Program-made: the position numbers and the translations under genes
Shown: positions 42,641 to 62,397 of the stretch, one piece after another
Layout: each line of letters opens with the position of its first letter
Numbering within the stretch: position 1 is the stretch's first letter
Notes under the pieces: model-generated
Seen by the model: the letters and a program-made list of their open reading frames with translations, nothing else
Database searches by the model: none
What the model was told of the DNA's origin: nothing
NCBI GenBank assembly: GCA_965197405.1
Contig: OZ240206.1
Span: 2,386,183-2,450,182, forward strand
Origin: Dehalococcoidia bacterium
Lineage (GTDB): Bacteria; Chloroflexota; Dehalococcoidia; Lucifugimonadales; JAGWBF01
Direction: 5' to 3'
DNA length: 64,000 nucleotides

Positions 42641-44036
42641 GTTGCAATGTAGTCTTCGCGCGGCGGCGAACCGCCAGCAAGCGTCGGGCAAGTGATTGGC
42701 CGCAGGGTGCTCCAGGTGCTTGCAAAATCCGTTCCCTGCGATGGGAGCGCGGGCGATAATCAATGCAGTTTACGGTTTTTTCCAGTCTTTCCCGCCAGAA
42801 AGCTGGAGGGTCCGTCCCCGACCCGGACCGTTCGCCAGTGATCGAGCTTTGCTCTCCCGGCGTTGGTTCCAACGAGGACAAGCGCCCACCCGCTGCGTGA
42901 CGCGGCACTCCGGGGTTGAGCCCTGCTCCTCCGGCGTCCACGTCGATGCGGGACATCACACCACGCTGGCGCCGGTTGTTAGCAGGGTCGTCAGCGTCGC
43001 CAACATCGTCCAGGAGGTGAAAACCGGAACCAACACGGCAACCCAGGACCCGAACCCTTCGGTCCAACTCTCAGAGCGCACACGACGCTGCGCTCACCCC
43101 TCACGCTGCGGCTGGAACGGGCTTCGCCATCCGGCCGCTTCCTCACGTCCGGCGCCGCTGTTCACAAACAGTAGCGTCGCGGTATTCACATTCCCCTCCG
43201 GCAATGCTGCATTGCCAGACCGGTTGCGTGCCTCTGCTGCGCCGTCACGGTTGACGCTGCTTTCGCCGACCGCGTAGCCCTCCCTCTCTCCGCTCACGGC
43301 TATTGCCAGGTTCGCGCTGGGGTTGAACTGCGCCGCGCTCTGGCGTAGCTGCTTTCCTTCCTCACTGCCGCCGCTGCCATACCCAAAGGCACGGCGGCGC
43401 TCTTCGTTGCGCTCTGCCCGTTGCCATCGCCCGTTCACGGTGTTGCCCCACGACGCAACCGCTCTCCCTTCTCCACGTGGGGGATGGCGAGCGCCGGATT
43501 CGGTTGCGGCGTCAGGGGCCTGACCCGTGATTGACACATCGCGGGCCGTGGCCCGGCGCATCCGGCGGCCAGACCTGCTGGTTCAATCCTATGTCCGGTG
43601 GGAACGGGACCGGCGTCATTCCCCTGCGCCGCAACGGGTGGGAAATGCCGGGGTCAACCGGCAGCGCGTCAGCGTCAACCACGACAACCACATCGAGGAG
43701 GTGATCAACGGCAACAACGGTCATCCTGGGTTCCCTGCCATAACGGGCCGGTTGGAGCAACCGGCGAACCGGCAATAACAACCCGAAGCCCGCCGCCTTC
43801 CCGGGGCGCGGCGGCAACTGGGGCGGCTCCGTGGGCCGCCCCTGACAATCGAATAGGCGCCAACGAGCGGGGTCGTCTCTCCCAACGGCGGGGAGGCGTC
43901 CCCGCTCTTCGTGTTTCGCCACCGGCGAACACCAGAGCGGCTGAATGGACCGCACCCAAAGACCTACATCTTGAACCGGAGAGCGGGGTCGGTCCATTCG
44001 GACGGGCCTCGCTTTCCCCCTTTTGGAGGAAGCGAC

Positions 44037-45278
44037 ATGACCACCACCACCACCACTACTAACAACAACAGCAATAACACGGAGACCAGCCACAACCTCG
44101 CGGCCACACTCTATGGCCAAGGCGACGGCCAAGAGGACATCAACACCCTACCGGCTCTCCAGGCTCAGGTTAGCACGGGGCAAGAGACAGCGAACAAAGG
44201 TAAGCCCGAGAGCGAGCTCCGGGCCGCAGCCCGGCGACGAGGCCTCACCGTCAAGGAACTGGCCTCCCTGATGGCCGTCAGCTACGGCTACCTGTGCTCG
44301 GTGGCCAATGGCCGCCGGCCCTGGAGCCCCATGCTGCGGGAGAGGGCCAAGGCGGTCCTGGGAGAGGCGCCCGGGCCGGGCGTCGTCTACCGCCGGGGCG
44401 GCGTGGTCCAGGGCGAAAGCACCTGCGTCCGGGAGCGGGCCAGGGAGCGGGGCCTGAGCCTGAAGGCCCTGGCCGCCCTGGTGGGAGTGTCCGCCGGCTA
44501 CATGTCCGACGTGTGCCGGGGCCGCCGCAACATGAGCCCGGCGGTGCAGGCGCGGGTGGAGGCGGCGCTGGGCGGTCCGGTGGAGATCGCGCCCGCCAGG
44601 TGCGCCAACCGGCAGGGCGACGTGGTGCACGGCGGGGAGAGCACCTACCTCCGGGAGCGGGCCAGGGAGCGGGGTATGACCCTGCGGCAGGTGGCGGACC
44701 GGACGGGACTGAGCTACGGGTACGTAGTCCGGGTGTCCCGGGGCCGGCGCAACCTGAGTCCCGCCGCCCAGGCGCGGATGGAGTCGGTCCTGGAGGCTCC
44801 CGTGAAAACCGAGTCCGCCCAATGCTCCAACGTGGACCCCAGCGTTCTGTGGGAGCGAATGGACGCGCACCACATCAGCCAGAACGAGGCAGCCCGGCGG
44901 GCGGGCATCAGTTCCGGCATGCTCTCCCAGACCATGAACGGCAAGCGCACCCCCTCGGGGGACGTGCTGCGGCGGCTGCACGAGGTGCTGTTCGCGCCGT
45001 CTCCGGCGGAACTGGTTGCGCCCGTCGAGCTCAAGGTGTTGGCCTGGAAGAAGGGCGGGCGCAACGGGGTGGTGATACGCGGCGCCGGTGGACCTCGGGC
45101 TGGCGGCAGGTACGACGGCGGCGCCATCCGCGTCGGCGGCCGAGTGCCCTGGGGGGCCGAGGTCGAGTATGCCTACACTACTGGCTACGACAGCCACGGC
45201 CGGGTGTCGGTGAACCATATAGTGGATGAACGGGGCTGCGCCGCCCTGTTGCAACAGGGGGAGCCGGACGGCGTCTAG
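44037..45278 (+). CDS. Protein with four tandem Xre-HTH domains and an unknown C-terminal domain
   Basis: GGAGG RBS; repeats of RERG(L/M)(S/T)L..(L/V)A..G.S.GY....RGRRN.SP. Confidence 0.85.
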   Translation: MTTTTTTTNNNSNNTETSHNLAATLYGQGDGQEDINTLPALQAQVSTGQETANKGKPESELRAAARRRGLTVKELASLMAVSYGYLCSVANGRRPWSPMLRERAKAVLGEAPGPGVVYRRGGVVQGESTCVRERARERGLSLKALAALVGVSAGYMSDVCRGRRNMSPAVQARVEAALGGPVEIAPARCANRQGDVVHGGESTYLRERARERGMTLRQVADRTGLSYGYVVRVSRGRRNLSPAAQARMESVLEAPVKTESAQCSNVDPSVLWERMDAHHISQNEAARRAGISSGMLSQTMNGKRTPSGDVLRRLHEVLFAPSPAELVAPVELKVLAWKKGGRNGVVIRGAGGPRAGGRYDGGAIRVGGRVPWGAEVEYAYTTGYDSHGRVSVNHIVDERGCAALLQQGEPDGV

Positions 45279-46049: not shown

Positions 46050-47390
46050 TCACGATGACAACTCCGCAAAGCGCGAGCCATTGATTGATTCTCGGTACGC
46101 CTCGTCATCGCGGGTTATGCAGATGCATCCTTGCTTCCGTTCAAGTGCTGCGGCTTGGAAAGGGGCCACCGCACGCGGCTGGAAGAAAACGCTGTTCTCC
46201 TTTGCTGCCTTCCCGGTGATCGCTAGTTTCGCTATCTCTGCCGCCGTCATCAGCCCAGCTGCATAGGACAGGAATGGGAGGGCGACATCGTCCTCACTGA
46301 CCGTTTCATCGACGGATGGTGCAGTTGCGCACGCGAGGGGTGCCGACGTTCGTTGGCTTCCGGGCACGCATAATGAGCACGGGCCTTTCGTTGGAATGTG
46401 TTGAAGTAGCGTCGCTTGCCAGTTTTTGCCCGTGGTGGCGTAGATTTGTACCGGAGGGAAGTAATTCTCTATTGTCGACCGCACGTTCTTTTCGTTGGCA
46501 GCTGAGATAATGAGGTCAGGAGTCCCTTGCGGGCGTTGCGCCCATTCTTCCAACTCGTGCAGCCAGGCGTAATAGGCTGAAGTTTCCCTGACTCTTGTTT
46601 GTTCTAGCCAGCGTTCGGCGACCGTCACCTTTGATGTGTTCTGTAAGGCGTCTTTCCACGTGAACAAGGGAGATCGTGTGACGTTTTCCACCTCTACGTT
46701 GTCTCGGTCAACGAGTGCAGCGTGAAAGTCTTGAGTGGCTAGACTCAGGAAGAACAGGGCGCAGCTGCCAACGGAGCCTACGCCTACGCACCAGAGTTCC
46801 CCGACTTCAAATCCGGTAGGTTTGGGAGGGCTGGGTAGGTCCTGTGTGCCAACGTTCCATGTGTACGTGTCCACTGTTGTCCGCTCAAACTGCTCGGCTT
46901 TCGGGTCTATCTGTATGCGAGCAGCTGCCATGATTGCTGCGAACGCAGCACCGAATGGATTCTGGTGATTATGGCTACTCAGGGGGGACTGTCCTGTTCC
47001 GGAGTACGCCTCCCAGCCGCTTCCGTGAACTACTATGCCGTCTCCTTTTGGCCCAATGAACACTCGACGGTCTCCGGGCATTGGCCCGCGGCTCACGTGC
47101 TGACCGTACTGGTGTGCTTCCGCCAGCGTTTGATGGACGACACCGTCCAGTGTTCTCCCTTTCCAAGGTAGGAGGCTCGAAATCGTAGCAGGCGGCACTT
47201 GCGTCGCAACTGACTTGGTCATGCGTCCCAAGATGCTGGCAGCCGTGACCGCAGCCACTTGCCCTGAGTACGTCTCGGCGTATTCCGGGTCGACTGTGAT
47301 GTGTACGGTTGACCCGTCAGGCAGCGGCGTTGATCCCGCATAGCGCGCCGTGCGATCACCCCACCGCTCGTCGTATCGTTGTTCTTGCAT
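46050..47390 (-). CDS. E1-like ThiF adenylyltransferase (BilD-like)
   Basis: VGVGSVG, VDRDNVEVENVTR, SKV, CSLC and CIC zinc ligands, candidate catalytic Cys in LACA; N-terminal extra domain. Confidence 0.85.
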   Translation of the reverse strand: MQEQRYDERWGDRTARYAGSTPLPDGSTVHITVDPEYAETYSGQVAAVTAASILGRMTKSVATQVPPATISSLLPWKGRTLDGVVHQTLAEAHQYGQHVSRGPMPGDRRVFIGPKGDGIVVHGSGWEAYSGTGQSPLSSHNHQNPFGAAFAAIMAAARIQIDPKAEQFERTTVDTYTWNVGTQDLPSPPKPTGFEVGELWCVGVGSVGSCALFFLSLATQDFHAALVDRDNVEVENVTRSPLFTWKDALQNTSKVTVAERWLEQTRVRETSAYYAWLHELEEWAQRPQGTPDLIISAANEKNVRSTIENYFPPVQIYATTGKNWQATLLQHIPTKGPCSLCVPGSQRTSAPLACATAPSVDETVSEDDVALPFLSYAAGLMTAAEIAKLAITGKAAKENSVFFQPRAVAPFQAAALERKQGCICITRDDEAYRESINGSRFAELSS

Positions 47391-47402
47391 TTGCTTTGAC
47401 CG

Positions 47403-47903
47403 TTACAGGATTTTGACCTGCTCTTCGATTTCTTGGAATTTGTGCCCGTCCCACATCAGGGTATGGGCGCTTATCAACGACGGTAGTAGGCTCCCGTATT
47501 TCGGAAGCACCATTGAGAAGTAGCCGGGGTGTTTTATTCGCATTCCATTTAGGTCGCCTTTGCTGTGAAAAGCGCCTGCCGGGTGGGTGTGGATTTGCCC
47601 GACCACTTGGAGGTTGGACTTCGTTACTTCGCCAACGATTTTTGTGATTTCTCCTCTGCTGACGTCGAAACTTCCCCGTGTCGTAGCCGCGTTTGGGAAC
47701 CTTGCTGACGCGGCAATCGTGGTAGTTCCGGTCGTCAATCCGATGAGGTATGCGATTCCTTCGCGGCTTCTCTGGGTTGCGCTTTCCATGCCTTGCATGA
47801 CTTCGCGGAGGCATTGCCTAGTCAGGGCTACTGTGTAGCTTTGGGCAGGCGCCACCGGGGGTGTGTTCCGCCGCCTGAAGAGATTTCTGATTTTTGCAAT
47901 CAT
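47403..47903 (-). CDS. JAB/MPN deubiquitinase-like peptidase (BilC-like)
   Basis: REGIAY and QIHTHPAGAFHSKGD JAMM motif. Confidence 0.88.
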   Translation of the reverse strand: MIAKIRNLFRRRNTPPVAPAQSYTVALTRQCLREVMQGMESATQRSREGIAYLIGLTTGTTTIAASARFPNAATTRGSFDVSRGEITKIVGEVTKSNLQVVGQIHTHPAGAFHSKGDLNGMRIKHPGYFSMVLPKYGSLLPSLISAHTLMWDGHKFQEIEEQVKIL

Positions 47904-48352
47904 TGCTGGCGCCCTTGGTATTTGTCGCTCTTGAGTTCAACCTCGATGCGTAAAAGCATCGCCGATAGTGTCTTAGTGCCCCCGGTGCGCTCGTTGCTCT
48001 GCCAGTCTGCTAGACGCCATTCGTTGTGCGGGCCGACTTGCGACGCGAGGCGGTTCCACGGTGCACATATCACGGGTATATTGCCGTGCTTGATGAAGAA
48101 GTCGTATTGGTTCGGTGAGAAAGCCAACTGGTCCAGTTCGCCTGTCGCTTTGTCGCGCCAGTGAAACGCAGGTGGTTGTCCGGGGAATCCTTCGTAGTCG
48201 ACCTCAACCTGGTACTGGTCGCCGTCATTGGCCGTAAGCGTGATCCTGAATCGGTAGTCGCCGGCTTCCTCAAACTCCCACCCGTAGAGGTGGGAGTTTT
48301 GAATGACGTGCTCAATCTGCTTCGCGACGATGCTGTCGCCTACGGCGGTCAT
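47900..48352 (-). CDS. E2-like conjugating protein (BilB-like)
   Basis: UBC-like FPGQPP, single Cys in VICAPWN; located between Ubl and JAB. Confidence 0.75.
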   Translation of the reverse strand: MTAVGDSIVAKQIEHVIQNSHLYGWEFEEAGDYRFRITLTANDGDQYQVEVDYEGFPGQPPAFHWRDKATGELDQLAFSPNQYDFFIKHGNIPVICAPWNRLASQVGPHNEWRLADWQSNERTGGTKTLSAMLLRIEVELKSDKYQGRQQ

Positions 48353-48354
48353 TT

Positions 48355-48609
48355 CTACACCCCGGAGCCTGTGGCTACCAAGGTTAGAACAGCATCGTCC
48401 TTTAGGTCCAAGCTGGAGAGGCTTTTGTCTTCCGGAAGCGGCTTCGGCTGGCCGTCTAAGTACAGCTCCAACTTGTCCTCCGTGGACAGCCGCATCTCCT
48501 TCGCGACTTCGGCTATAACCTCGGCAACGGTAGTGTCCAGCTTGAATTTTCCCTCGTACACGCCGGCCGGAGTCCCGATCTTCAGCATTATGGTGGCCGT
48601 AGTCGTCAT
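48355..48609 (-). CDS. Ubiquitin-like beta-grasp protein (BilA-like)
   Basis: 84 aa; TTVAEVI, LELYLDG, LPEDKSLSSLDLKDDAVLTLV, C-terminal GSGV. Confidence 0.8.
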   Translation of the reverse strand: MTTTATIMLKIGTPAGVYEGKFKLDTTVAEVIAEVAKEMRLSTEDKLELYLDGQPKPLPEDKSLSSLDLKDDAVLTLVATGSGV

Positions 48610-48711
48610 TTTTCCTCGTGCGCGGGTTTGGATTTGCCAGCCAACTTTGGGGTGCTGGCTAGTCGCGCTACAATTCAGAGTACACTTGAACCAATATAGT
48701 GTCAACTTATA

Positions 48712-49788
48712 TTAGTCCCAATTTGGGAACAGTTTTCGGACCGCCCCGGTGCCTACGAACTGAGAAAGCAGTCGATAGTTTCGCAACTCACGGCGAGCCC
48801 GGCCTGCAACGATGGCTGGGTGGATGCCGACCTCTTGTGCCAAGGCTATCACCGTCATTGGTGATGGGTTTTCGAGCACACCGCTGTCCTGCCATATATC
48901 TTCCGGTATCAGACAGTCGTAGGCGAAGTCGTCGGCGTCCGTCTCCTTGTCATCCCCGCTGGCCAGTCTGAGGTCGTCAATGAAGGTTTCGTCGTTTTCT
49001 GGCAGGTGCCGTACTACGTGGGCCAGTTCGTGCATGAGCACCCACCAGAAGTTGTCGACCCTGTCGTAGCGGAGGGTCAGGCCGATTACTGGCCGTCCTT
49101 CCACGGACTTCATGGCAGCGCCATCCAAGTGGGTCCGTGGCAAATGCCCTACTATTTCGACGGCGATTCCTTGCCCAGCCAGGAAATCAACTGCTTGCCG
49201 TGGGCCGTCAATTGCGGGGCTTAACCTCGCTACTTGGTTCATCAGCTCGGCTTGGTCGCTGTTCTGTTGGTAGTCAACGGACAGGTCCCTTTTATTGGCC
49301 TGAGCCAAGACCTGCCAACACCAGGCTTTGAGTGCGTAGGGGTCGGTCTTCGCGTTGGCGCGATTCTGATTGGTCTTCCGATACAGCGCGACGGTAGGTT
49401 GCGTGTGTCCGGCTTTGTTCACTAACTCTGCGACCAGTTCTTCTGCGTGCTCACGAAGGTTGCTCCGCTTCTTAATCCAGCCACGCTTTGCCATCTCGCT
49501 GAGGGGGAACCGTCGCCAGTCGATTTCCTCGTCAGAGTGACCGTTGTATACAGCAGGCTCTTTCAGCAATGCTTCCGCTGGTATGCCTAGGTGCCGGTGG
49601 AGTGCCCGAGCCATCGGCATAGTCAGAGGTCGAGTGCCAGAGAGAACTTCGGAGACCTTAGAACGACTTCCAATCATCGGGATCAAGTCTCGCTGTTCGA
49701 GGCCGCATTCAACCATGTAGAACTTGATAGCTTCTACAGAGTCCCTGAATTCGTGTGTCCTAATGGAACGGTTATCAGCATCTCTCAT
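48712..49788 (-). CDS. HigA-type HTH fused to an ImmA/IrrE metallopeptidase
   Basis: GSRSKVSEVLSG HTH; FWWVLMHELAH; ETDADDFA. Confidence 0.88.
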   Translation of the reverse strand: MRDADNRSIRTHEFRDSVEAIKFYMVECGLEQRDLIPMIGSRSKVSEVLSGTRPLTMPMARALHRHLGIPAEALLKEPAVYNGHSDEEIDWRRFPLSEMAKRGWIKKRSNLREHAEELVAELVNKAGHTQPTVALYRKTNQNRANAKTDPYALKAWCWQVLAQANKRDLSVDYQQNSDQAELMNQVARLSPAIDGPRQAVDFLAGQGIAVEIVGHLPRTHLDGAAMKSVEGRPVIGLTLRYDRVDNFWWVLMHELAHVVRHLPENDETFIDDLRLASGDDKETDADDFAYDCLIPEDIWQDSGVLENPSPMTVIALAQEVGIHPAIVAGRARRELRNYRLLSQFVGTGAVRKLFPNWD

Positions 49789-49918
49789 GACTCCTCCCTT
49801 TCGTGCCATTTGGTGGGCATTGTACCATGTTCCCAAATTCGCAAGATGTGCGTGGACACTGTGTTAATATTGCAGGTGAACCAAGGTAGCCTTAGGCTAT
49901 CAAAAGGAGGTGATAACG

Positions 49919-50106: not shown

Positions 50107-50571
50107 TCAGGTCAGCCTTAGGTGGATTTCGGTCACTACCCTTCTCATATAGACTGTCGCATTACCATACATACCGCCGGAAAGCGACTCCGGGCTGTCG
50201 TGCTCGATCACTGGTCCTTGTCCCATTTTGCTGCGCCAGCGCCCATTGAGCACTTGAACGCTCGCGTGTTTCATCTCGCCGTTCACTTCGTACAATGCGA
50301 CCTTTTGGTAGACAACCTCGGCGTCGCTGCGGTCGCATTGTTCGTACCCCAGTCCGGCGAACGCTTCCTTCAGGCTGTCTAACCGGTTAGTCTCCGTCGC
50401 CCACGGAGGCCAGTAATTGATGCCGTCGGGCCACCACCACTTGCTGGTGTCGTCGGCGGCGTAGGCGATACAGTTATACTGCTCTGAGGGTTGTTCAACG
50501 ATTTCGAATCCTTCGCTGGATAGCAGTGGGAACGCTACGACGAGCAGTTGCGCCCATCTAGCCGTATCCAT
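50107..50571 (-). CDS. Papain-like (Cys-His) fold protein of unknown function
   Basis: YNCIAYA, WWWP, KHASVQ, WRSKMG; start overlaps the upstream stop by 14 nt. Confidence 0.7.
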   Translation of the reverse strand: MDTARWAQLLVVAFPLLSSEGFEIVEQPSEQYNCIAYAADDTSKWWWPDGINYWPPWATETNRLDSLKEAFAGLGYEQCDRSDAEVVYQKVALYEVNGEMKHASVQVLNGRWRSKMGQGPVIEHDSPESLSGGMYGNATVYMRRVVTEIHLRLT

Positions 50572-53500
50572 TGTCTTCACCCCATTGCAACCAGGCGGCC
50601 TGCATCGCTCCAACGTTGCCGCGGTCGTCCGGTTTCACGGGGCTGGCGCTGGTGATTTCTCTCAGCGCATGGAACCAGTGCCCACCCTGGGACTGCATAC
50701 GTTCCAGGATCAGGGGCACCGCCGATTCGCCCATGCTGACGATTTCTCGGTGGGCCGGGTGTTCAGTTGCCCGCCCCGAGTTCGACAGCAGTACGGTTTC
50801 ATTTTCCCACTGGTCGGCCAGTTCTTGGAAGCGTTCGCGGTCGGCAGGTTCTATGTCCGCCTCATCCGCGTACTGGCCGTAACCCAGGCCGCGGACGTGG
50901 GGCTCCTGGTGGAGCAGGTGGCGCAGGCGAGCCAGCTCGGCGGCGTCCCAGCCCATGGCAGTGGCCACGGCCTCGTCCCACAAGCGGCGCACTTCGCACT
51001 CCCCGTCTCGGAACTGCGGAACCGTCATGTCCCTGGTGCGTTCCCAGCAGTCGGCCAGGATACTACGGATGCGGTCGTCCTTGATGTCGGGTATACGGAT
51101 GTTGTCGGCTTCCGAAGTACTGTATGTAGGAAACGGTATTTTTCGTCCTGCACGCCGCATCAACTGTAAGCGTCCAGCGGTCGAGTTTATGAACACTGCG
51201 GCTGCTTTGGCTTGAGGTGACGATAATCCAGCAACTGGCATCCAGCCGTTGCCTATGTATCGCTCGTCATCAGCCGTTGCGGTTAATCGACCGGTTTTGC
51301 TGTCGTGCCCTGCCGTGATCAGCAGGTTACTGGCCTTTTCCAGAATCTGATCCACTTCTGGATAGGTGCCGCCGTTCAGCTTACGCGCCTTCTCGTCTCG
51401 GTTTTTTGGAACCCAGTATTCATCTGGATGGCTTTGTATGCGGGTTTGGGCGTCGGCACCTTTTGATTTAAGTATTGGGAAGCTGCCCGCGGACCCGGCT
51501 GGTGCCGGCTCGAAAGAGCCGCGCAGCAGCCGGCCTGTCGCCTGCGCCGACAGGCCGGCTGAATCTAGTGATTGTAGGTCAGCGTCGTTAGCGAACCGTG
51601 CAGCTGCCTCGGCTAGATCGGGCGACCTCCAGATGGCAGGCGTCCAGTCGCCCTCTGCCATCCTTTCGGCGGACCACCAGGACACTTCGCCCCACCCGTT
51701 AGCGATCTGTCCTTGCTGACATCCCAATAGGCAGCGATGCAATTCATCAACTTCGGTTTCATCAACGGGCATCCTGTCGAGTTGCACGAACCGCGTCGGC
51801 GCACTGTTCACCTTGTTGCGTGTGGCTATAATTATGCTCTCGTCAATTTCAGTGTTCTGACTAAGGGTGAACTCCCGTGGCCAACGACCAGTGAGCACAG
51901 TGTGAATGTGATAGCGCTGGGCCAGAGTGCGCCGCTCATTCAACCCGGATGGCGCAGATAGGGCGATGGTCGGGTTGATCATCGTTAATGTCCCTGCATC
52001 TTTAGGCAGGCAGCGGTCAGCCAGCATCACGAAACACGGTCGCACCGTGTTTCGTGATGCGAAATTTTTCAATTCCGGGTCAGCTTGGACCAGTAAATCC
52101 TCCAAACTATCCGTCCGTTTTCGCAATGCTTGCTGAACCCCGTCGGGAAACTTTTCACCCATCTTGGAACGATTGCTGAACGGCGGGTTCATAATGACGA
52201 TTCGCGCATCTTTGACCGCATCCACGGCGTATTCCAACTCGGCGTCGTCGGGCTGATTCCAGACTATTTGAGAGCCGATTTTGTCGTCAGGCAAGCCCAG
52301 TTCGTCGCCCCTGGGGACGATGGCCTTCTGCCCCAGGAGTTCCAGTGTTCCCACGGATACTTGCGCTGGATTGTTCGCCTGCGGGCCATAAGGCATCAGG
52401 TGCAGGCCCATTTTCCGGTAGCGGATGTCCTGGTTGCCGGCGGTGAGCTGCGACGCCGCCAGTTGCAGGGACACCGGGTTGATGTCCAACCCCTTGATGG
52501 TATCCTCCACCGCCAGTTTTTGCAGTTCGCCGATCTGCTCCTCGCTGGAGCCTTGCTCCCGGGCCCGGCGCTTCATGTCGGTGAGCATCGCAGCCAAGAG
52601 CGTCCCGCTGCCGCAGGCAAGGTCAACGGTCTTGTGTTCGCGCCAGACGTCGATGGCGGTCCAGTCCTTTTCCCCGCAGGCGTCCAGGGTGAGGCGTGCG
52701 GCGATGGACGCGGCCACCGGGCGGGTGAAGTAGGCACCGTCGCTGGCCTGGTTGCCCATAACCCGGTTGAACAGCGGGCCGGCGTGGTCGGCGCCCATGT
52801 CGGCGTAAGTTTCGGCGATGCGTTCCGCCTCCGCCGTGAGGTGCCGCAGGGCACGTTCCAGTCCAGCCAATTTGCCGGTGTCCTCAACGGCTTCGATGGC
52901 GTTGACGGCCGGAACTAGTACGGGGTGAAAGTCGCGACGCATGATGTTGTACCATTCCCTTTTGACCCGGCGTACCACGTTCACGTCGTTCTTGACTGCC
53001 TGTAGGTCGCTGACGCCAGCCAGCCAGCGGCCATTGGCGATGCGCTGGTGGAGCATGGCGGCGTTCATCATCAGCAGGGCGGCGGTCACGCATCCGTCGG
53101 CGGCCTTTCCTTCCTTTATCGCCTTTTTGGCCTTCTCGTCCAAGTTGTCCAGCATAAAGTGCTGGTCAAGGGCCGGTTGCAATTGGTCCTCTCGCAGATG
53201 GCGGGCGGCTTCCTTGACGCTGGATTCCAGGATGTTCAGGTCTCGGACCACGCGGTTATCCACCAGCCCAGACTTGGAAAGCAGGTTCATCTTGATGGCG
53301 TTACCCTGGTCTTCCAGTCCGCTGAGTTTGATCTGCCGAAAGAAGACTTGGTCCATTCGCTCTTCGCGGGTGGGGAGAGGCTTCCTTTCCGTTGTGGTCG
53401 GGATGCGCACCCCCTCGCCCTTGTTAATCATGGCCTTGGCCTTGGCCTTGGACTTCTTGATGTCCACTATGCCGCGGGTGCCGTCGGGCCGGGGATTGGC

Positions 53501-56011
53501 CCTGGCTACAGTGTCCATACGCAATTCGATGCTGCCGTCGTGGTTCTTCTTGCCGGTGACAATTTGTGTGGGTTCCGTAGGCTTTTCCGCAAGTTGCAAG
53601 GCCGTTGGCTTTGCTTCACCGATGCCACGCGATTCGTCGGCTGCGATGTCCTGGGTCTGGCCGTACAGCAATGGAGCGGAGTCGACGGCGGCAGGTTCGT
53701 CCGAAACCGGCTCCGTCATAGTGGGCGTCTCTGAGATTGGACGAAACTCTTTGGTCAGGGTGCTTTTGCCCTCTAGCACCCGTTCCACGGCCTCTTGCGC
53801 TTCCCCGGGCGGGCCTTCGTGCTCCCGGTAGTGGATGCGCTTGTCCTCGCCGCTGGCCACGGCGACGATGGTTCGCAGCGCGGGCGGCGGTTGCGGGATG
53901 TATAGTTGCAGTAGGTCAGCCAGATTGTCCTCAATACGCTGGTCGTGGGCACGCAGGGCCAGGAGTATCTGCCCCAGTTCCTGCCACCCCTCCTCCTTGT
54001 CGCTGGAACTGAGCCACTGTTCCGGGTCCGCATTGGGCGGTATCACGATGGGGCAGATAATATAGCCTATCTCTTTGCCCTCCGCAGTGCGCATGGCCCG
54101 GCCTACCGCTTGGATCACGTCGATGGGGCTTTTCCTGGCTTCCAGGAAGGCCACGGCGTTCAATGAGGGCGAGTCGGTGCCTTCACCGAAGATGCCCACG
54201 TTGATGATGCCGTGGGGATCAGGTTCGGTGGCTTCCGCGAGCCGGCGCTTGGCGTTTTCGCGGGCCGTTACATTGCTGGTAGCGTCCAGGTGTTCCAGAG
54301 TGTACTGCGCGGCGGTTTGCCCGTCCTGGTAATCGTTGAGCCAGTCCTGAAGCCATTTCCGTACCGCAGAGGTTTGGAGGGCGTCCTTCATGTTTTTGGA
54401 TTTGTCCACGGTGTTCATGAAGGCGATGCAGGACTTGATGGGAACCGTTCCCTCGCCCCGGTTCTGCGTGGCACCGCCCATGGCCAGGGAAAAAGCCAGC
54501 CCGCGAAGAAAATGGGTGGAGGTCAGGGGGTTGCGCCCTTTGCTCTGGGTTTCTCCGGCCAGCGTATTGGCGATGTTGTAGGCGTCGGGGCCGTTGACGC
54601 CCACGGCGATGATGCGATAGTCAGCAAGCCAACGGTTCCTGACCGCTTCCACGTAGTTCTTGCGATACAGCTCCACGCCGAAGACGGTCTCGTCGTCCAT
54701 GGTGCGGACGATCCAGTCGCTGGCCTGGTCTCGGTTCACCCTGCTGGTGTCGTAGATGCGGGGCGTTGCGGTCTGATAGACACGGTAGGTTGCCGGGAAT
54801 GCATCGTTGTCGTGGCACAGCGTGAAGTCGCGGATGCGGCGCTCTTCGTCGGACATCTCGCTGGTTTTGGCAGGGCGTTTCCGGCGCAGTCCAGCAGTAC
54901 GGTGCGCTTCGTCTGCTATGAGGACTTTTGCCGTGACTTCGGTCTCTTTGAGGGCCTCCGCAATACGGTTGCCGCTCTGGTAGGTGCCGAAGATGACGCT
55001 TATCTGGTCGGCGGCCTGACCGTCGCGTATCCATTCGGATATTTCCGCCGGATCGGTGGTAACCTTGCCCTTTACCTCGGCGGCGCTGACGTTGCTGTTG
55101 TCCAGCGTAGGGTCGGCGGCAGTGTTCCGCGTGCTTTCCTTCTTGGGATCGTAGCCGGCGGTTTCGTCCGAGCAGACGGCCAACGCGCGGATGTCCGTCT
55201 CGGCGTGCTGGAGGTACTCGCGCCTGATTTGGGCGACCAGGGCGATGGACGGACACAGCACGATGGACAGTTCACCCGGTGGCGTGAGTTCCTCGACGAT
55301 GCGCAATGAGATGCGGGTCTTGCCTGTGCCGCAGGGCAAGATGATTTTCCCGCGTGCTTGGCCTACCGGCAGGCCGCCACTGTCCGACCGTTCATATTCC
55401 TTGAGGATGCGCACGCTTTCGGCGATGGCTTCCGCTTGCATACAGGACTTGGATTGCCGACGTTCCTCGCCGTCGGGGTTGGGTTCGCAGTGAGGGCATT
55501 CCTCGTAGGTGAACGCAGCCTGCTGTTGCAGCAGGTCGTTGGCGATGCTGACCATCTTGACGGGTTTGTCGGTCATTGACATGGCCTGCTGGCTGTTGCC
55601 GCTCACAGGGTTGTCGCCGTTGGTGACGATCCATCGTTCGGCCCAGAATTCGCCGGCGGACGTGCTGGCGAAGCTGTCGATTTCGCCCTTGCTGATAGGA
55701 GCGCCCTGTCCGGCAGCATTCAGCCGCCGGGATTTGCACTGAATTGCGACGTGCTCTCCGTCGCTTCGGCGAATCGCTACACAGTCAATGCCTATATCCT
55801 GGTTGGTAGTTCCAGGGAAATGAGTTTCGCGGTCTGGCCATTCGGACCAGAGGTAGCACTGAGCAATGTCCCACTCTTTGACATGGGGGCCTACGGCGAC
55901 GGTAACATCTTCAAGCCATGTGCCATCGGTGCTTTGTGGACTCATCTCGGCTACGATGGCGATAGCGTTTTCGATGATGGCAGGCTGATTGATGCTTTGC
56001 ATAGTTTTCAC
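50558..56011 (-). CDS. Type ISP-like single-chain R-M enzyme (Mrr-like nuclease, SF2 helicase, N6-MTase, TRD) with extra C-terminal domain
   Basis: DIGID..IQCK; PCGTGKT, DEAH, TATP, QAVGRAMR; DLACGSGT, MNPPF. Confidence 0.88.
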   Translation of the reverse strand: MKTMQSINQPAIIENAIAIVAEMSPQSTDGTWLEDVTVAVGPHVKEWDIAQCYLWSEWPDRETHFPGTTNQDIGIDCVAIRRSDGEHVAIQCKSRRLNAAGQGAPISKGEIDSFASTSAGEFWAERWIVTNGDNPVSGNSQQAMSMTDKPVKMVSIANDLLQQQAAFTYEECPHCEPNPDGEERRQSKSCMQAEAIAESVRILKEYERSDSGGLPVGQARGKIILPCGTGKTRISLRIVEELTPPGELSIVLCPSIALVAQIRREYLQHAETDIRALAVCSDETAGYDPKKESTRNTAADPTLDNSNVSAAEVKGKVTTDPAEISEWIRDGQAADQISVIFGTYQSGNRIAEALKETEVTAKVLIADEAHRTAGLRRKRPAKTSEMSDEERRIRDFTLCHDNDAFPATYRVYQTATPRIYDTSRVNRDQASDWIVRTMDDETVFGVELYRKNYVEAVRNRWLADYRIIAVGVNGPDAYNIANTLAGETQSKGRNPLTSTHFLRGLAFSLAMGGATQNRGEGTVPIKSCIAFMNTVDKSKNMKDALQTSAVRKWLQDWLNDYQDGQTAAQYTLEHLDATSNVTARENAKRRLAEATEPDPHGIINVGIFGEGTDSPSLNAVAFLEARKSPIDVIQAVGRAMRTAEGKEIGYIICPIVIPPNADPEQWLSSSDKEEGWQELGQILLALRAHDQRIEDNLADLLQLYIPQPPPALRTIVAVASGEDKRIHYREHEGPPGEAQEAVERVLEGKSTLTKEFRPISETPTMTEPVSDEPAAVDSAPLLYGQTQDIAADESRGIGEAKPTALQLAEKPTEPTQIVTGKKNHDGSIELRMDTVARANPRPDGTRGIVDIKKSKAKAKAMINKGEGVRIPTTTERKPLPTREERMDQVFFRQIKLSGLEDQGNAIKMNLLSKSGLVDNRVVRDLNILESSVKEAARHLREDQLQPALDQHFMLDNLDEKAKKAIKEGKAADGCVTAALLMMNAAMLHQRIANGRWLAGVSDLQAVKNDVNVVRRVKREWYNIMRRDFHPVLVPAVNAIEAVEDTGKLAGLERALRHLTAEAERIAETYADMGADHAGPLFNRVMGNQASDGAYFTRPVAASIAARLTLDACGEKDWTAIDVWREHKTVDLACGSGTLLAAMLTDMKRRAREQGSSEEQIGELQKLAVEDTIKGLDINPVSLQLAASQLTAGNQDIRYRKMGLHLMPYGPQANNPAQVSVGTLELLGQKAIVPRGDELGLPDDKIGSQIVWNQPDDAELEYAVDAVKDARIVIMNPPFSNRSKMGEKFPDGVQQALRKRTDSLEDLLVQADPELKNFASRNTVRPCFVMLADRCLPKDAGTLTMINPTIALSAPSGLNERRTLAQRYHIHTVLTGRWPREFTLSQNTEIDESIIIATRNKVNSAPTRFVQLDRMPVDETEVDELHRCLLGCQQGQIANGWGEVSWWSAERMAEGDWTPAIWRSPDLAEAAARFANDADLQSLDSAGLSAQATGRLLRGSFEPAPAGSAGSFPILKSKGADAQTRIQSHPDEYWVPKNRDEKARKLNGGTYPEVDQILEKASNLLITAGHDSKTGRLTATADDERYIGNGWMPVAGLSSPQAKAAAVFINSTAGRLQLMRRAGRKIPFPTYSTSEADNIRIPDIKDDRIRSILADCWERTRDMTVPQFRDGECEVRRLWDEAVATAMGWDAAELARLRHLLHQEPHVRGLGYGQYADEADIEPADRERFQELADQWENETVLLSNSGRATEHPAHREIVSMGESAVPLILERMQSQGGHWFHALREITSASPVKPDDRGNVGAMQAAWLQWGEDNGYG

Positions 56012-56532: not shown

Positions 56533-58044
56533 CTACCTAAACAATTCGTCAGCGCGAGCTTTCCATAACCCAATGTCGTCGAGTCGCGCCGAGTAAGAAC
56601 TCGTCTCTCTACGATACCCGGAATCGCGTTCGCCACGGTACGAGAGCCAGTTAAAGCTCCCCCAGGCACAGAACTGTGAGTCGCAGATAATGAACTTTTC
56701 GTGAGTCTCGGCGAGTTTAATCGTCAAATTGTCTCTCAGGTCCCTTGGGATCAAATCCCGAAGCTTGGAGAGGACAGCGTTGCCCTTTTCCCTGTTGCGG
56801 GACGCTTCAGGCCCACGTTTGCGAATACCAAGTCCCCAGGCGATCCTCACCTGGACGCCCCTGCCGATTGCGGCTGCCAGCATCCGGCAGACCTCATCAT
56901 CGAAGGCATACGGGTCTATCCAGGCCGAAACCAAAGTGAGCTCCGCAGAGGCATTGCCAATGGCGGTCAACAACACCTGTCGGTGTTCTTCGGTCTTGAT
57001 CAGCCGGATTTGTCCTTCCGTAATTGAGGTCAGTTTGCTCTCCCTTTCCTCCAACAGTTGTTCCAGTTGGAGTTTTTCCGACTCCAGGGTCTTGACCCGA
57101 GCCTCAAGGTCAGAACGTTCCTCTTCGTCTTGGGTAGTTCCTTGTGTTGCCCTCGCTTCCGCAACGGCTCTCTCGGTTTCTGTAACTTCCTGATCCAGGT
57201 CATCGATCTCTTGAAGGAGGCTGGATTCTTCCTGAGAAAAGGCTTGGGGCCGGATCCAATCAGTGAGTTGGTCTGCCTTCAGGTCATCCGGGACCAGATC
57301 TACCCCGCGGTCTGCCAGCCTCTGCAAATAGGCAGATTCCTCTTCAAGATATTGCTGAGCCTGAAAAGCGGCAAAGAACGACTTGTCACTGTTCACCGCA
57401 TCTAACTTGACCAGAATAACGTCATTCCGGTACTTGAGCCTCACGTCTTTGATATCCGATACTTCCAGAATTTCTACCCTGTCCCGCTGCCGTCCGTAAA
57501 ATCGCTCGTAGTCCCTGACTTCGTCGGTCCGGACGTTGCCAAGGCGTGGCCTCCGGGGGCTCGTGGAGGGAATGAACAAACCGTCTTTCCTTACCTCATC
57601 CCGGTCCAGCAGTTGCCGGACATCTGTATCAAGAATTCTCCTGGTCAGGGGGTCGTAAGGGACCCTGATATGTTTGTTCCTGGGCCGCCTGGTCCTTCCT
57701 CTGTCTCGGAGGACCTGCCTTCCTGAATCAGTAATACCGATGCCGGGCCCAGGAGACTGTGTGACCAGGTTCTCTCCAAGAAGTTCCGCAGCGGCGCTTG
57801 CTACGTAGTTCTGGGACATACCCAGCATTCTGCCGATTTCTGCCGGTTGCGTTACCTTTAGGTTCGACAGATGGAGCACAAATCTAGCCGGAGTGGACAG
57901 TTCGTCTTCTGCGATTTCGGTCACCTTCAGACGCAACTCGTAGACTGGCAAGCAAACCCGAAAAGGCACGTCGACTTTGTGGTCCGGGAACCGGCGTTTT
58001 GCGCGGGCGGCGACGTCATTCAATTCGTTGTGGGTAGTATTCAT
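56533..58044 (-). CDS. PLD-family nuclease with wHTH and coiled coil (Mokosh MkoB-like)
   Basis: HEKFIICD (HxKxxxxD) and GSFNW; ATGA coupling to the upstream gene. Confidence 0.8.
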   Translation of the reverse strand: MNTTHNELNDVAARAKRRFPDHKVDVPFRVCLPVYELRLKVTEIAEDELSTPARFVLHLSNLKVTQPAEIGRMLGMSQNYVASAAAELLGENLVTQSPGPGIGITDSGRQVLRDRGRTRRPRNKHIRVPYDPLTRRILDTDVRQLLDRDEVRKDGLFIPSTSPRRPRLGNVRTDEVRDYERFYGRQRDRVEILEVSDIKDVRLKYRNDVILVKLDAVNSDKSFFAAFQAQQYLEEESAYLQRLADRGVDLVPDDLKADQLTDWIRPQAFSQEESSLLQEIDDLDQEVTETERAVAEARATQGTTQDEEERSDLEARVKTLESEKLQLEQLLEERESKLTSITEGQIRLIKTEEHRQVLLTAIGNASAELTLVSAWIDPYAFDDEVCRMLAAAIGRGVQVRIAWGLGIRKRGPEASRNREKGNAVLSKLRDLIPRDLRDNLTIKLAETHEKFIICDSQFCAWGSFNWLSYRGERDSGYRRETSSYSARLDDIGLWKARADELFR

Positions 58045-61000
58045 AGGGAACTCACCAAGTTTGGCTGGATGATCTGGCACTCTTCAGGGTGCGACCGGAT
58101 GTGGTTGAGAATGGACGCGAACGGATTCAATTGGGCGCCAATGGTGGCCGATTCCATCATGTAGCCGTCTCCGACAATCACGAGTAGATCTCGGGCTCGC
58201 GACAGCGCCACGTTGATTCTGCGCCGGTCCTTCAAGAAACCGATGCGTTGTTCGCTGTTCGACCGTACCGTCGAATAAATCACGACGTCGCATTCACGAC
58301 CCTGAAATGAGTCCACTGTGGCGATTTCTATCTGGATGTTGCGCCAACGCTCCTGGTCTTCGGTGTCGACCCGGGTGGTCAGTAGTTCCACCTGAGCCGA
58401 GTATCCGGTTATCACGGCAACAGATGGGCTTCTTCGCCTCTCTCTGGACTTCTCTTCCATCTTCACCAGCAAGTCGAGGATGACATCCGCCTCGGCCGAA
58501 TTCGCGAATGATTTACCGACCCGGTTTTCCGCCCTATTAGGTGTCATCGAGGTGGATATCCATGTAACAGGAGCCGGCATCCAATCGAAGAGGAATTGCC
58601 GGGAACGGGTCCGGTCGCCGTTTCCAAGACGACCGTCATAAAATACGGAACTAATGAGGTTTCCGATGGCCGAGTACATCCGGTTCTGGGTGCTCAAAGT
58701 AGCGAGAAAATCCCAGTCCGATCCCTCCACTTGTTCGACCAAGGTCTGGAACAGACTGGTATCCAGACTGTGGCCGTCGGATGAAATGTTGGATTCGTCG
58801 CCCTTCATGTCCTCAACCATGGGAGGCAATTGACGTTCATCGCCCACCAAGATTGCTCGCTCGGACTGGACGATGGGAATCAGCACCTCCGGCACGGTGG
58901 CCCTTCCAGCTTCATCTATGATCGCCCAGTCGAACCCGGCTTCTCCCAGCCGCGCGCCCCCTGCCCGTTTGCCGCTGAATAAACAGGTCGCGGCAACGAC
59001 TCGGGATGACTTGCCAATCAATTCCTGGAAATCCTGCGTGAGACCAACGACCCTGGTCCAATCAGTGATTGTCCTTCTCAGTTCCTGGACCCGCTGGAGT
59101 TCCTGACTTGCGGGGTCATCCGTATCCGAGCCTTGCTGGTTGGGTGATGCAGACGCCGTTATGATTTCGGCCAGTATCTCCTTTTCGTTCATCCCCTGCG
59201 TTTCTATTGGCGTAGGCAGCAATTCATTCAGCGCATCCATCTGTTCACTGAGCTCGCTGCGAGCCCTCTCTACCATTTCAGCAGTCGCCTCGATGGCCAC
59301 CTCAGTTGCTTCGGACCCCGGTGAGGAATACTCCTGTTCGTACTCGTGGAGTTGCTCCGCTATTTCCTTAGCCTCAGTAATCCATTCCTCGATTGTTCCG
59401 GCAGCTTCCATCTCGGGGTTGTTATCCGGCTCGCCAGCTTTAATGGCGTCCCTGGCTTGGCGCTCATCCGAACGCAGTTTGGCCAGCTCGGGTTGGCATC
59501 TGTCCAACACCTCCTGCCGCCAAGTTCGGGCCCGCTCTGACAAAGTCCAACTTTCTCCACCGTGGCCGATTTTTTCAGAGCGTCCCAGCCTGACCATTTC
59601 CGGCGGAGGATCGCCGGCAGCATTTGCTATCTGCGTGAGGGTGTGGTCGACAGCAACGTTGGACTGAGAAGTGAGAAGAATTCGAGCTTCCGGTTCTCTC
59701 TTGAGAATCTGAAGAACGATCTCGGTGATAACTGACGTCTTGCCCGTGCCGGGCGGCCCTTGGATCAGGAATAGTTCGTTGCTGGAAACAGCTTTGCTTA
59801 CCGCAGCTTTCTGGTCGTCCGATAACCAGTCTTGAAAATAATCTTGCGGAGCTTCCGAGAACCGGGTCGCAGTTGAGGGATCTACGATTACCCGTGCCAG
59901 GCCAGGATTGACCATCTGCTCGTACAGGAAAGCGTTGACTGCGTTGGACTGTCGGCTGTTGGCAACCAGCGCCTCAGTCAGGTTGGTAGTCAAGAGTCCG
60001 AACTTGGGAACGGGTGAATCGCTCCTTCGGAACCGGTTACTTTGCTTGGCCGCTTCGACGGTCCGGCCACGGATGTTCATAAGATTGCCTATTGACAACC
60101 TCGGTGCATTGGCGTTTTCCCTGACGGCGAGAGGGGCATCATCTTCCCAATCCAGGTCATCTGGAGGGAGGTCAACTAGGGAAAAACGCCAGTGGTCTGA
60201 CTCCTCCGATACATTGGAGTACCTTAGCGCGGTTGCCTCCCCCTCGATGCGACTGCGGTTTCTGCTGAGCGCGACGTTCCAATTTTCTATGAAGTCGCGC
60301 CGTGACTGGCGCCGTTCATCGGACACCTTCCCCACGGTCTCGTAGGTGTCGAGCTCCGAGAGCAAATGGGTCAGTTCCTCCGCTGCCTCCGAGAGTGTAG
60401 TGGCATCTTCTCCAGACCTGAAGCCTGGATTCACCGGGTCCCACATTGCGCGGTAGACCATCGACCGAACTTTTTCGCTGTCAAGATTGGGCGCATAGGG
60501 GGTTTGAACCGCCTTCACGGCCAGCGCGTCTCCCTGTTCGTCAACGGCGCAAATGAGCCGTAGGGAATCTCCGAGGATAATGACGTCTCGGCTGTCTCGT
60601 CGGTCACGGCGGATGTGCACGTCTTCCAGTTCCATCCCTCCGAGGTCTTCGATGATCACATCCGATACCGACTGGAAATCATCTGTCAAGGACAGATCAG
60701 CTGCCACGACATCTCTTATCGCGGTCCTGGTTATCGCAAGGAAATGTGAGGGCAAGGTCTCATGGCGTCGGGTAACTTCCAGCGCGGATAATAGGTCCGA
60801 CCCTCTGGAAAAACGCCGTTCCGGCTCCTGTGCCAGCATCCTCTTCAAGAGGTTTTTGATTGCGACGGGATGCTCTACGAACTCATCCACCATATCAGGG
60901 GATGGTCCCTCCAGGGGTGGTTCGTGGCCGGAAAGAAGATGGGAAAACACCGCCCCCAACGAAAAGAGATCGGATTCAGGTCCAGTCGGCAAGGCGGCTC

Positions 61001-61538
61001 GCTGCTCGGGCGAGGCGTAACCGCTGCTCCAAAATCCTGCCAGCGTCTCCCCGACAGTTAATTGTGTGAGGAGTTTGCTGATACCGAAGTCCGTTAGCAT
61101 TGGCCGCCCGTTCACATCGAGCAGAATGTTGGACGGTTTAATGTCCCGATGGACAACATTTTCGGAGTGGGCGTGGGCCAGGGCTTCCGACAGCTCACGC
61201 ATCACGCGATACGGTTGAAAACCACCTAGCTGGGAATGCAATTCGCCCTTCAAGTACCGGTCCAGTGAATACGGCTGATATTCCAATACCAAGTAAGGCG
61301 AACTGCCGTCATCAGGCCAACTGCTGCTCAGTAGCCGAACGATATTTGGGTGCCTCAATTTTCTTAAGGCGCTGGTCTCGCGCTTGAACAACTCCCTCTT
61401 GATATCGTCGCCATGGGACTTGTTGAGGATTTTGACAGCCACCTGCGAGTTGCCGGATGCGCTATCCAGGGCCAGATATACGGAACTCATTCGTCCGTCA
61501 CCAATCTGACCTTGCAGCATGAATCGTTCTGTAATCAT
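58041..61538 (-). CDS. Ser/Thr kinase fused to an SF1 (DNA2/NAM7-type) helicase (Mokosh MkoA-like); start 61538 or 61586
   Basis: VAVK, HRDIKPSN, DFG; GPPGTGKT, DEAG, GDERQLPP, TVDSFQGRE, NVALSRAR. Confidence 0.87.
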   Translation of the reverse strand: MITERFMLQGQIGDGRMSSVYLALDSASGNSQVAVKILNKSHGDDIKRELFKRETSALRKLRHPNIVRLLSSSWPDDGSSPYLVLEYQPYSLDRYLKGELHSQLGGFQPYRVMRELSEALAHAHSENVVHRDIKPSNILLDVNGRPMLTDFGISKLLTQLTVGETLAGFWSSGYASPEQRAALPTGPESDLFSLGAVFSHLLSGHEPPLEGPSPDMVDEFVEHPVAIKNLLKRMLAQEPERRFSRGSDLLSALEVTRRHETLPSHFLAITRTAIRDVVAADLSLTDDFQSVSDVIIEDLGGMELEDVHIRRDRRDSRDVIILGDSLRLICAVDEQGDALAVKAVQTPYAPNLDSEKVRSMVYRAMWDPVNPGFRSGEDATTLSEAAEELTHLLSELDTYETVGKVSDERRQSRRDFIENWNVALSRNRSRIEGEATALRYSNVSEESDHWRFSLVDLPPDDLDWEDDAPLAVRENANAPRLSIGNLMNIRGRTVEAAKQSNRFRRSDSPVPKFGLLTTNLTEALVANSRQSNAVNAFLYEQMVNPGLARVIVDPSTATRFSEAPQDYFQDWLSDDQKAAVSKAVSSNELFLIQGPPGTGKTSVITEIVLQILKREPEARILLTSQSNVAVDHTLTQIANAAGDPPPEMVRLGRSEKIGHGGESWTLSERARTWRQEVLDRCQPELAKLRSDERQARDAIKAGEPDNNPEMEAAGTIEEWITEAKEIAEQLHEYEQEYSSPGSEATEVAIEATAEMVERARSELSEQMDALNELLPTPIETQGMNEKEILAEIITASASPNQQGSDTDDPASQELQRVQELRRTITDWTRVVGLTQDFQELIGKSSRVVAATCLFSGKRAGGARLGEAGFDWAIIDEAGRATVPEVLIPIVQSERAILVGDERQLPPMVEDMKGDESNISSDGHSLDTSLFQTLVEQVEGSDWDFLATLSTQNRMYSAIGNLISSVFYDGRLGNGDRTRSRQFLFDWMPAPVTWISTSMTPNRAENRVGKSFANSAEADVILDLLVKMEEKSRERRRSPSVAVITGYSAQVELLTTRVDTEDQERWRNIQIEIATVDSFQGRECDVVIYSTVRSNSEQRIGFLKDRRRINVALSRARDLLVIVGDGYMMESATIGAQLNPFASILNHIRSHPEECQIIQPNLVSSL

Positions 61539-61701
61539 CTCGTTTCCCGATTGACCTGATTCCTGGCGATTTTCACCGACCCCCATTCTCAGCTTTGACC
61601 TCGCATGAAACGCAACACATAATAGTACCACATCCGCTCGTTGTCCCAAATAGTCTGCTATCGAAAAATCAGGACGATTGCAAAGTCGTCCAAGTGCCCA
61701 A

Positions 61702-61775
61702 ACCGTTAGTCCTGAGCTTGTCGAAGGACGGGTAATCAGAATCCGTTCATGGTTCGACAGGCTCACCACGAACGG
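61702..61775. repeat. REP doublet of a second family
   Basis: CCGTTAGTCCTGAGCTTGTCGAAG ... GTTCGACAGGCTCACCACGAACGG inverted pair. Confidence 0.7.
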
Positions 61776-62397
61776 ATTCTCACCGACTTGGCAATCGTCC
61801 TGATCGAAAAATCGGGAGGGGATGCGACATCGCGGCCACTTCACCTGAAGGTTGGCAGGCGGAGGCCGCACTGCCGCCATGGTTCTGGGGTATGTCAGGA
61901 CCGAACTGGACCAATGGGGGCGGGGGCTGTTGGTGGGACAGCAAGCACATCAACTGGTCTTGTCTTTCTGGGTACGTAACAGCGATAATACACGCCCTAG
62001 CTCGGTGAGCCGCCGCCCTGACAGACTGATCCGATGGCCCGGCAAGGTTTAGGAGCGGCTCTGCCTACAACTTGACCTCCCACCGAAAAGTTCGCAATAC
62101 GGTACGCTTAGACCCACCGGAACAGCTGTTCGTGTCAATGGTATGAGCAGTGGCACGATTGCTTAATTTTGCCCCGGTCCTGTCCAAATAACCGGTTCTT
62201 CCACACTTTAGGTGAGAATTCGGAAAAGGCCCAATATTAGAGCGTAAGTTAGACTCGCACCGATGGGCCCCGTGCCCATCAGGCCTAGCTGCCCTTACTG
62301 CCCCGCCTATCTTCAGTTCCCTTCATCAAATTTGCAGAAGAGTAAACAACCGGGGCCACTTCAAGATGTTTACTTTCCTGTTCGCTTCAAAGCATCC

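Follow-up and report, generated by a model that had tools for sequence, protein, structure and literature searches.

In a stretch of 64,000 nucleotides from a Dehalococcoidia bacterium (contig OZ240206.1, positions 2,386,183 to 2,450,182; hereafter the window), the minus strand carries a gene for a single-chain restriction-modification (R-M) enzyme of 1817 residues, and this enzyme ends in a helical domain (the tail) that is an add-on and not a native part of it. The end of this gene overlaps the start of a gene for a small protein of the DUF7689 family, a predicted papain-like cysteine enzyme, and the tail and DUF7689 together are a widespread two-gene module that is mostly found without fusion to an R-M enzyme. 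Pair and fusion are real, conserved and apparently undescribed: no description of either was found in the literature searched, in which the term DUF7689 was likewise not found, and supplementary tables of defence or toxin-antitoxin (TA) candidates could list the pair. The reading that we tentatively favour is that a TA-like inhibitor-enzyme pair rides on the R-M gene and is likely to stabilise it. The features discussed are collected in Table 1.

That the tail was appended to the enzyme had been proposed in the initial annotation, and the comparison of orthologues agreed with this proposal. Sixty-nine loci were scored by script for an ISP-like protein reaching the native end (..GLGYxQYADE), and the tail was present in 48 of them, with the DUF7689 gene directly behind it in 47 of the 48 (43 intact and 4 broken, one locus not being scored). 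The other 21 scored rows stop 0-50 residues past the native end and, as four of these were genes fetched twice, represent 17 distinct tail-less orthologues, none of which (0/17) has DUF7689 directly behind it. Because the fused loci were found with the tail, the ratio of 48 to 17 is not a prevalence. A close orthologue was present in six other genomes among 61 relatives and was tail-less in all six. The opposite possibility, that the tail is a normal part of this ISP subfamily and does not co-occur with the papain-like gene, was excluded by the tail-less orthologues, which lack an adjacent DUF7689 gene.

A stand-alone tail gene lies within about 2 kb behind the enzyme in four tail-less loci, accompanied by DUF7689 in three of them, and these three tail-DUF7689 cassettes form the sister group of the fused clade, a position that suggests how the fusion arose. 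On a quick enzyme tree, which was built from the first 1000 residues with six duplicate or near-duplicate rows excluded, the tail label switches six times, four of the changes being forced by well-supported branches, which indicates that the cassette has been repeatedly gained, lost or swapped. As a separate observation, one locus (L046:7900-11400) has direct repeats of about 500 bp with a 71-aa gene that separate a tail-less ISP-like gene from a stand-alone cassette; these repeats are a possible route to fusion by deletion.

The DUF7689 start codon (ATG at 50571) lies 14 nt within the 3' end of the large gene, and since the same overlap pattern recurs in 62 of 79 related loci, the overlap is not a matter of chance; we infer that it couples the translation of the two genes. 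No sigma-70-like promoter was found between 49700 and 51400. Contigs from public sequencing runs span the overlap without differences, and others diverge at 50860-50862, which is the enzyme/tail junction; an assembly artefact was ruled out by the spanning contigs and by the recurrence in other loci. The reading frames, the 14-nt overlap, the tail motifs and the YNC..H..WRSKMG motifs of the initial annotation are all present in the sequence, and the tail and DUF7689 each occur in one copy in the window's genome.

Fusions to ISP-like enzymes make up 45 of the 79 loci from GTDB and come from six phyla, the named relatives including Ca. Entotheonella and Ca. Synechococcus spongiarum, which are sponge symbionts. 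DUF7689 is intact alongside 36 of the 37 full-length fused enzymes, and the seven catalytic motifs of the enzyme are present in 36-38 of 38 entries (near-duplicates included). For 27 fused loci, with pairs kept at dS 0.05-1.5, the tail had a median ratio of non-synonymous to synonymous substitution rates (dN/dS) of 0.19 (220 of 351 pairs), DUF7689 one of 0.24 (227 pairs) and the enzyme's final 100 residues one of 0.16 (205 pairs); the fused tail and DUF7689 are under purifying selection. The flanks vary, with defence genes at some loci and housekeeping genes at others, and no third conserved gene of the unit was found among the 45 of 130 called neighbours that were scanned.

The distribution of the pair was determined in three evenly drawn samples of 301 genomes each, taken from the window's class, the phylum of genome G403 and the phylum of genome G381; exclusion of the three seed genomes left 900. 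The tail was found in 27, DUF7689 in 30 and both in 25 of these 900 genomes, and an R-M fusion was found in one (G021) of the 27 tail-positive genomes. The initial annotation's statement that a stand-alone two-gene pair exists was therefore correct. Of the five genomes with DUF7689 only, two have a broken gene, G655 has an intact orphan, G695 a probable fusion and the fifth a distant CHAP-like protein. The tail profile retrieves 9,528 clusters at 50% identity, and its best matches are mostly short proteins in which the domain is C-terminal and the N-terminus is variable. The partner-first gene order is kept in divergent loci, and tandem arrays in G172 and G258 keep partner-enzyme pairs (8-10 DUF7689 and 9 tail matches). 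Searches with tblastn gave no match for the tail in plasmids and none for DUF7689 in annotated phages.

Several further observations were made on stand-alone copies. The arrays of diverged cassettes are L182 (G258:C1:1207000-1218500) and L183 (G172:C3:1189000-1202000), and two tail domains stand in tandem in P0357, P0360, P0362, P0374, P0375, P0385, P0408 and P0452. At L124:889-1254, L131:903-1361, L126:777-1316 and L232:274-1017, small genes immediately precede stand-alone cassettes in which the tail is extended at length on its N-terminal side; that of L232 is a TIGR04255 member, and the other three, which had no Pfam or NCBIfam hit, look SecB-like. A toxin-antitoxin-chaperone arrangement is possible at these cassettes. 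The intact tail-less DUF7689 gene of G655 (L235:1372-1869) is located directly beside an integrase-like gene, and we take a neighbouring sequence to resemble the 3' end of a tRNA.

The 154-aa protein matches Pfam DUF7689 (PF24738) with E 4e-36 and 124.6 bits, against a curated cut-off of 22.6, and no function is described for this family. At E 0.001, Foldseek returned nothing for its structural model (predicted local distance difference test, pLDDT, 93). The 50 VIA matches listed were all papain-like (AvrPphB, NlpC/P60, CHAP, C39 and Josephin) with no single papain-like family prominent, the best, AvrPphB, having a Z of only 6.0 with a root-mean-square deviation of 3.4 over 118 aligned residues. 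Every one of the 81 paired rows has C34 and H102, and N33, Q106, W112, S114, K115 and H124 are likewise invariant. In the model, C34 is placed at the start of helix 34-38 and H102 within strand 99-106; S114 and K115 are the invariant residues near the expected third catalytic position, H124 and Q106 being invariant too. DUF7689 is thus predicted to be a papain-like cysteine enzyme, as the initial annotation had described the small protein.

The tail had no family match in Pfam, PADLOC, NCBIfam or PHROG. Its model is all-helical (pLDDT 92), with the lowest values in residues 21-30, the conserved T-x-x-x-S loop; no Foldseek match to the fold was obtained, and VIA returned generic alpha-solenoids only, CpcE among them, with a best Z of 5.3. 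Neither the tail nor DUF7689 matched any solved structure by sequence. The integron cassette protein 3fy6 was considered as a relative of the tail and rejected, its sequence match being weak (E 0.46) and the protein being absent from both fold lists.

The module, made up of a helical partner and a predicted papain-like cysteine enzyme, is joined in frame to the C-terminus of the ISP-like enzyme, and the tentatively favoured reading of this fusion is TA-like. The overlap would couple translation such that the cysteine enzyme is made only after its partner, and the partner domain would bind and inhibit it. Once free, the cysteine enzyme may cut or acylate a cytoplasmic target, upon which growth would stop, and loss or turnover of the restriction protein would remove the inhibitor. 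The restriction enzyme would serve as a carrier, specific sensing of phage proteins would not be required, and the module would make the restriction gene hard to lose. Some R-M systems are described as stabilising themselves by post-segregational killing (PMC12707154). Single-chain R-M enzymes would presumably be unable to do so, and the module would supply such killing.

An inhibitor-enzyme pair is favoured because of the genomic linkage of tail and DUF7689, an asymmetry of loss, the partner-first order, the overlap, the arrays, the TA neighbours and the antitoxin-type N-termini. The purifying selection on both parts, the papain-like structural matches and the lack of a third conserved gene also count for it. 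Among 138 distinct tail units, 94 intact tails have an intact DUF7689 and 27 intact tails have a DUF7689 that is absent or broken; the reverse case is represented by L013, where the tail lacks a start codon, by L235, whose genome has no tail, and by one distant homologue. The 27 tail-only against 2 reverse loci, most of which were found with the tail, suggest that, of the two, it is DUF7689 that depends on the other. HicA/HicB, Xre-RES and HEPN-type genes adjoin stand-alone copies, and some tails carry antitoxin-type N-terminal domains, namely PF07704 (P0086), RHH_1 (P0444) and an AF2212-like domain (P0490). The TA-like graft of the initial annotation is thus upheld in part, in that partner-first order, overlap and arrays are among several genomic patterns of a TA-like kind. 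Two further comparisons were neutral. In the covariation analysis of the 81 paired rows, the top z of 6.6 fell at the overlapping codons, against 5.2-6.3 in neighbour-swapped controls, and the control was not exceeded; mirror distances (r 0.52-0.90) were as expected for neighbours and were not counted as support.

A number of results weigh against an inhibitor-enzyme pair. Retrieval of 79 loci by means of the tail has inflated the asymmetry, as has the easier loss of a longer downstream gene, and only 3 of 150 scanned tail proteins carry an antitoxin-type domain over the Pfam cut-off. The window's DUF7689 keeps the invariant residues and departs from the consensus at conserved positions 40, 87, 104 and 108. 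By dN/dS the tail is at least as constrained as DUF7689, and constraint on the partner at least as strong as that on the enzyme is unusual for an antitoxin. An intact DUF7689 without a usable tail is present in G655 and L013. In L027, L040 and L041 DUF7689 is intact and the R-M frame has a break upstream of the tail; these breaks may be assembly indels, and they sit poorly with the favoured reading unless coupling silences the cysteine enzyme. As the main result on this side, two Bacteroidales plasmid proteins with lipoprotein-like N-termini contain DUF7689 and a tail-like domain in one chain, and a protein sorted by the type IX secretion system matches the C-terminal half of these plasmid fusions with 14.4 bits, where the best of 1000 shuffles reached 6.4; it had no direct match to the tail profile, and it probably also carries DUF7689 and a tail-like domain. 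Such single-chain fusions speak for a task common to both domains and fit a two-part enzyme at least as well as a self-inhibited one. One of the plasmid fusions (L228) precedes a MACPF-domain gene.

The last results point to a reading in which the helical domain is not an inhibitor of the papain-fold protein but a co-subunit that it requires or a cap that binds its substrate, the fusion parking the enzyme on the restriction complex or being incidental. The single-chain proteins, which have predicted export signals, would be explained by this reading, as would the strong constraint on the tail with its invariant W, T, S and H residues and the intact orphan DUF7689 of G655. However, intact tails outlast DUF7689 far more often than the reverse (a biased count), and antitoxin-type DNA-binding domains occur on some tails, and we consider a two-part enzyme rather unlikely.

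The occurrence of the tail on other R-M scaffolds was examined among the 120 best longer tail hits, which comprised 73 full ISP-like enzymes (that of the window included), 30 C-terminal pieces, 5 internal deletions and 12 other proteins. These 12 include two Eco57I-like enzymes, a canonical Type ISP enzyme, an ISP_C-type enzyme and also small proteins that hit no Pfam family and of which three look HicB-like. R-M chains that end in the tail are ISP-like, canonical ISP (P0227), ISP_C-type (P0233, L037), Eco57I-like (P0143, P0171) and, in G021, an HsdR_N-MTase-S chain with a diverged tail at its end and DUF7689 behind it. This G021 cassette falls outside the clade of ISP-like fusions and is therefore a second origin; L037, by contrast, lies within the fused clade and has an ISP-like linker and is therefore a regraft, and most of the remaining R-M fusions likewise have the look of regrafts drawn from that clade.

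This range of scaffolds bears on the proposal of guarded restriction, in which a phage anti-restriction protein or degradation of the R-M chain would free the cysteine enzyme from the tail and cause abortive infection. In keeping with it, the tail ends several kinds of single-chain R-M enzyme, the G021 cassette stands apart, nearly all full-length fused enzymes, which come from six phyla, keep both an intact DUF7689 and their catalytic motifs, and precedents are known in PrrC and Ronin, which act with Type I components (PMC12707154; 10.1101/2023.04.06.535777). Against these points, the module does not need an R-M enzyme, as seen in the single R-M fusion of the genome samples and in the 10 of 51 fused-clade cassettes that stand alone; the tail has unrelated proteins among its fusion partners and occurs in exported single-chain proteins, it has switched repeatedly on the enzyme tree, most other R-M fusions seem to be regrafts, and no sensor element was identified. 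We therefore regard guarded restriction as unlikely, and we think it equally improbable that the fused domain cages a papain-like toxin which is set free, with abortion of the infection, when the restriction enzyme is jammed or degraded; this would be a covalently guarded form of single-chain R-M, in which an undescribed TA family of thousands of members has been grafted onto several R-M scaffolds.

A further reading is that DUF7689, after docking on the tail, cuts the restriction protein at or behind the acidic linker and so tunes restriction. The conserved coupling and the flexible, conserved T-x-x-x-S loop, which could be a reactive loop, are compatible with such processing, but the pair mostly occurs without an R-M partner and tail-less orthologues keep their motifs without any DUF7689, and this reading is considered very improbable.

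The large enzyme itself was analysed by domain and motif searches. The nuclease and helicase motifs are located at residues 72 (DIGIDCVA), 89 (AIQCK), 228 (GTGKT), 367 (DEAH) and 634 (QAVGR), followed by the methyltransferase (MTase) motifs DLACGSG at 1130 (motif I) and NPPF at 1275, in that order, as in a gamma-class adenine MTase. In phmmer comparisons the enzyme aligns with LlaBIII and LlaGI over residues 29-719 only, which cover the nuclease and helicase; beyond residue 719 no match to their coupler, MTase or target-recognition domain (TRD) was obtained in this comparison of sequences, and the ISP coupler and ISP C-terminal models (PF22240, PF18135) had no match in the enzyme at E 0.1. The enzyme is therefore ISP-like by its domain order and not a canonical Type ISP enzyme; the initial annotation's assignment to Type ISP stands for the domain order but not for canonical membership. 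The same genome carries two distant, tail-less MTase-TRD paralogues (G000:C1:1401959-1403752 and 768576-770978; about 25% identity), which have no nuclease-helicase match.

The unit is part of a defence island, to which a dCTP deaminase-like gene, Mokosh A/B, a PD-lambda-2 B-like gene and also Bil A-D belong. A link to the neighbouring Bil operon was rejected, since the neighbours change from locus to locus. A gene matching PD-lambda-2 B also follows the fused unit in L004.

Table 1. Features of the fused unit, its surroundings in the window and related single-chain fusions
Feature	Position	Strand	Remarks
ISP-like single-chain R-M gene with appended tail	50558..56011	-	1817 aa; Mrr-type nuclease, superfamily 2 (SF2) helicase, adenine methyltransferase plus a region for target recognition, as predicted
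Mrr_cat_2 nuclease domain	55541..55867	-	PF13156, E 2e-16
SF2 helicase/ATPase	54086..55441	-	ResIII and Helicase_C matches; LlaBIII match E 2e-53
Methyltransferase motifs I (DLACGSG) to IV (NPPF)	52178..52624	-	weak N6_Mtase match, E 0.019
Native enzyme end (..HVRGLGYGQYADE)	50861..50900	-	tail-less orthologues end 0-50 residues past it; loose contig ends at 50860-50862
All-helical partner domain (tail), about 100 aa, unnamed family	50558..50860	-	conserved F9, W16, T20, S24, H32, W60, W88 (numbered from 50854)
Junction	50558..50583	-	purine-rich GGGGTGAAG within conserved W-G-E codons, then 14-nt start/stop overlap
DUF7689 protein, predicted papain fold, 154 aa from ATG	50107..50571	-	invariant Y32-N33-C34, H102, Q106, W112, S114, K115, H124
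Gene with helix-turn-helix (HTH) and Peptidase_M78	48712-49836	-	PD-lambda-2 B match, E 8e-124; no partner genes recognised
Complete Bil ubiquitin-like operon	46050-48705	-	BilA-D matches; at other loci not conserved next to the fused unit
455-aa protein with four HTH_31 repeats	43911-45278	+	adjoins the island edge
Mokosh MkoA/MkoB and dCTP deaminase-like gene	56533-63191	-	upstream of the R-M gene
DUF7689-tail-like fusions (Bacteroidales plasmids)	L228:4827-5825, L229:72-1058		32 and 30 bits, best shuffle 7.7

The large unnamed partner family, with its tie to DUF7689, is a candidate for a new class of TA systems with a cysteine enzyme, and the building of its module into single-chain restriction enzymes is a conserved architecture. 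Toxicity of the module, if it exists, would give single-chain R-M genes, in which restriction and methylation are lost jointly, a means of becoming addictive or, on the bolder reading, of being guarded against anti-restriction proteins.

Of the known systems that were compared, LlaGI and LlaBIII resemble the large enzyme in that they are single chains with an Mrr-family nuclease, an SF2 helicase, an adenine MTase and a TRD in the same order, as described in PMC4872093; the window's enzyme, unlike these, bears the extra C-terminal domain and the coupled DUF7689 gene. Cpe1-Cpi1 (PDB 9l5u; PMC12136450) is similar in being a small papain-fold cysteine enzyme with a cognate partner, but its structural match to DUF7689 is weak (Foldseek E 0.11, TM score 0.33). 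Cpe1 is C39-like, is delivered by type VI secretion (T6SS) or contact-dependent inhibition (CDI) and has its immunity gene downstream, according to PMC12136450. In the present unit, by contrast, the partner gene is upstream of DUF7689, and no T6SS or CDI carrier domain was found in the window or in the fused loci examined.

In PrrC-EcoPrrI and Ronin, an effector encoded in the R-M locus is silenced by R-M proteins (PMC12707154; 10.1101/2023.04.06.535777), and the unit in the window is similar in that a candidate effector is encoded in an R-M locus. The effectors described in these sources, one a tRNA nuclease and the other a small membrane protein, are bound up with Type I components, whereas the candidate here is predicted to be an enzyme of papain fold. 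Its partner forms a domain of its own on the R-M chain, to which it is fused, and most copies of the pair occur without R-M. An effector that is always tied to R-M is not what was seen in the sampled genomes, where one fusion was found among 27 tail-positive genomes; this makes membership among such guardian systems less probable but does not lower the possibility that the fused form guards.

From Type II TA systems the module differs in having no match to a known TA family, in that most partners have no DNA-binding domain and in its exported single-chain fusions. It resembles them, however, in its two small overlapping genes with the partner first, its patchy spread, its arrays and its orphan partners, and in the ribbon-helix-helix (RHH), PF07704 and AF2212-like N-termini that the partner occasionally carries.

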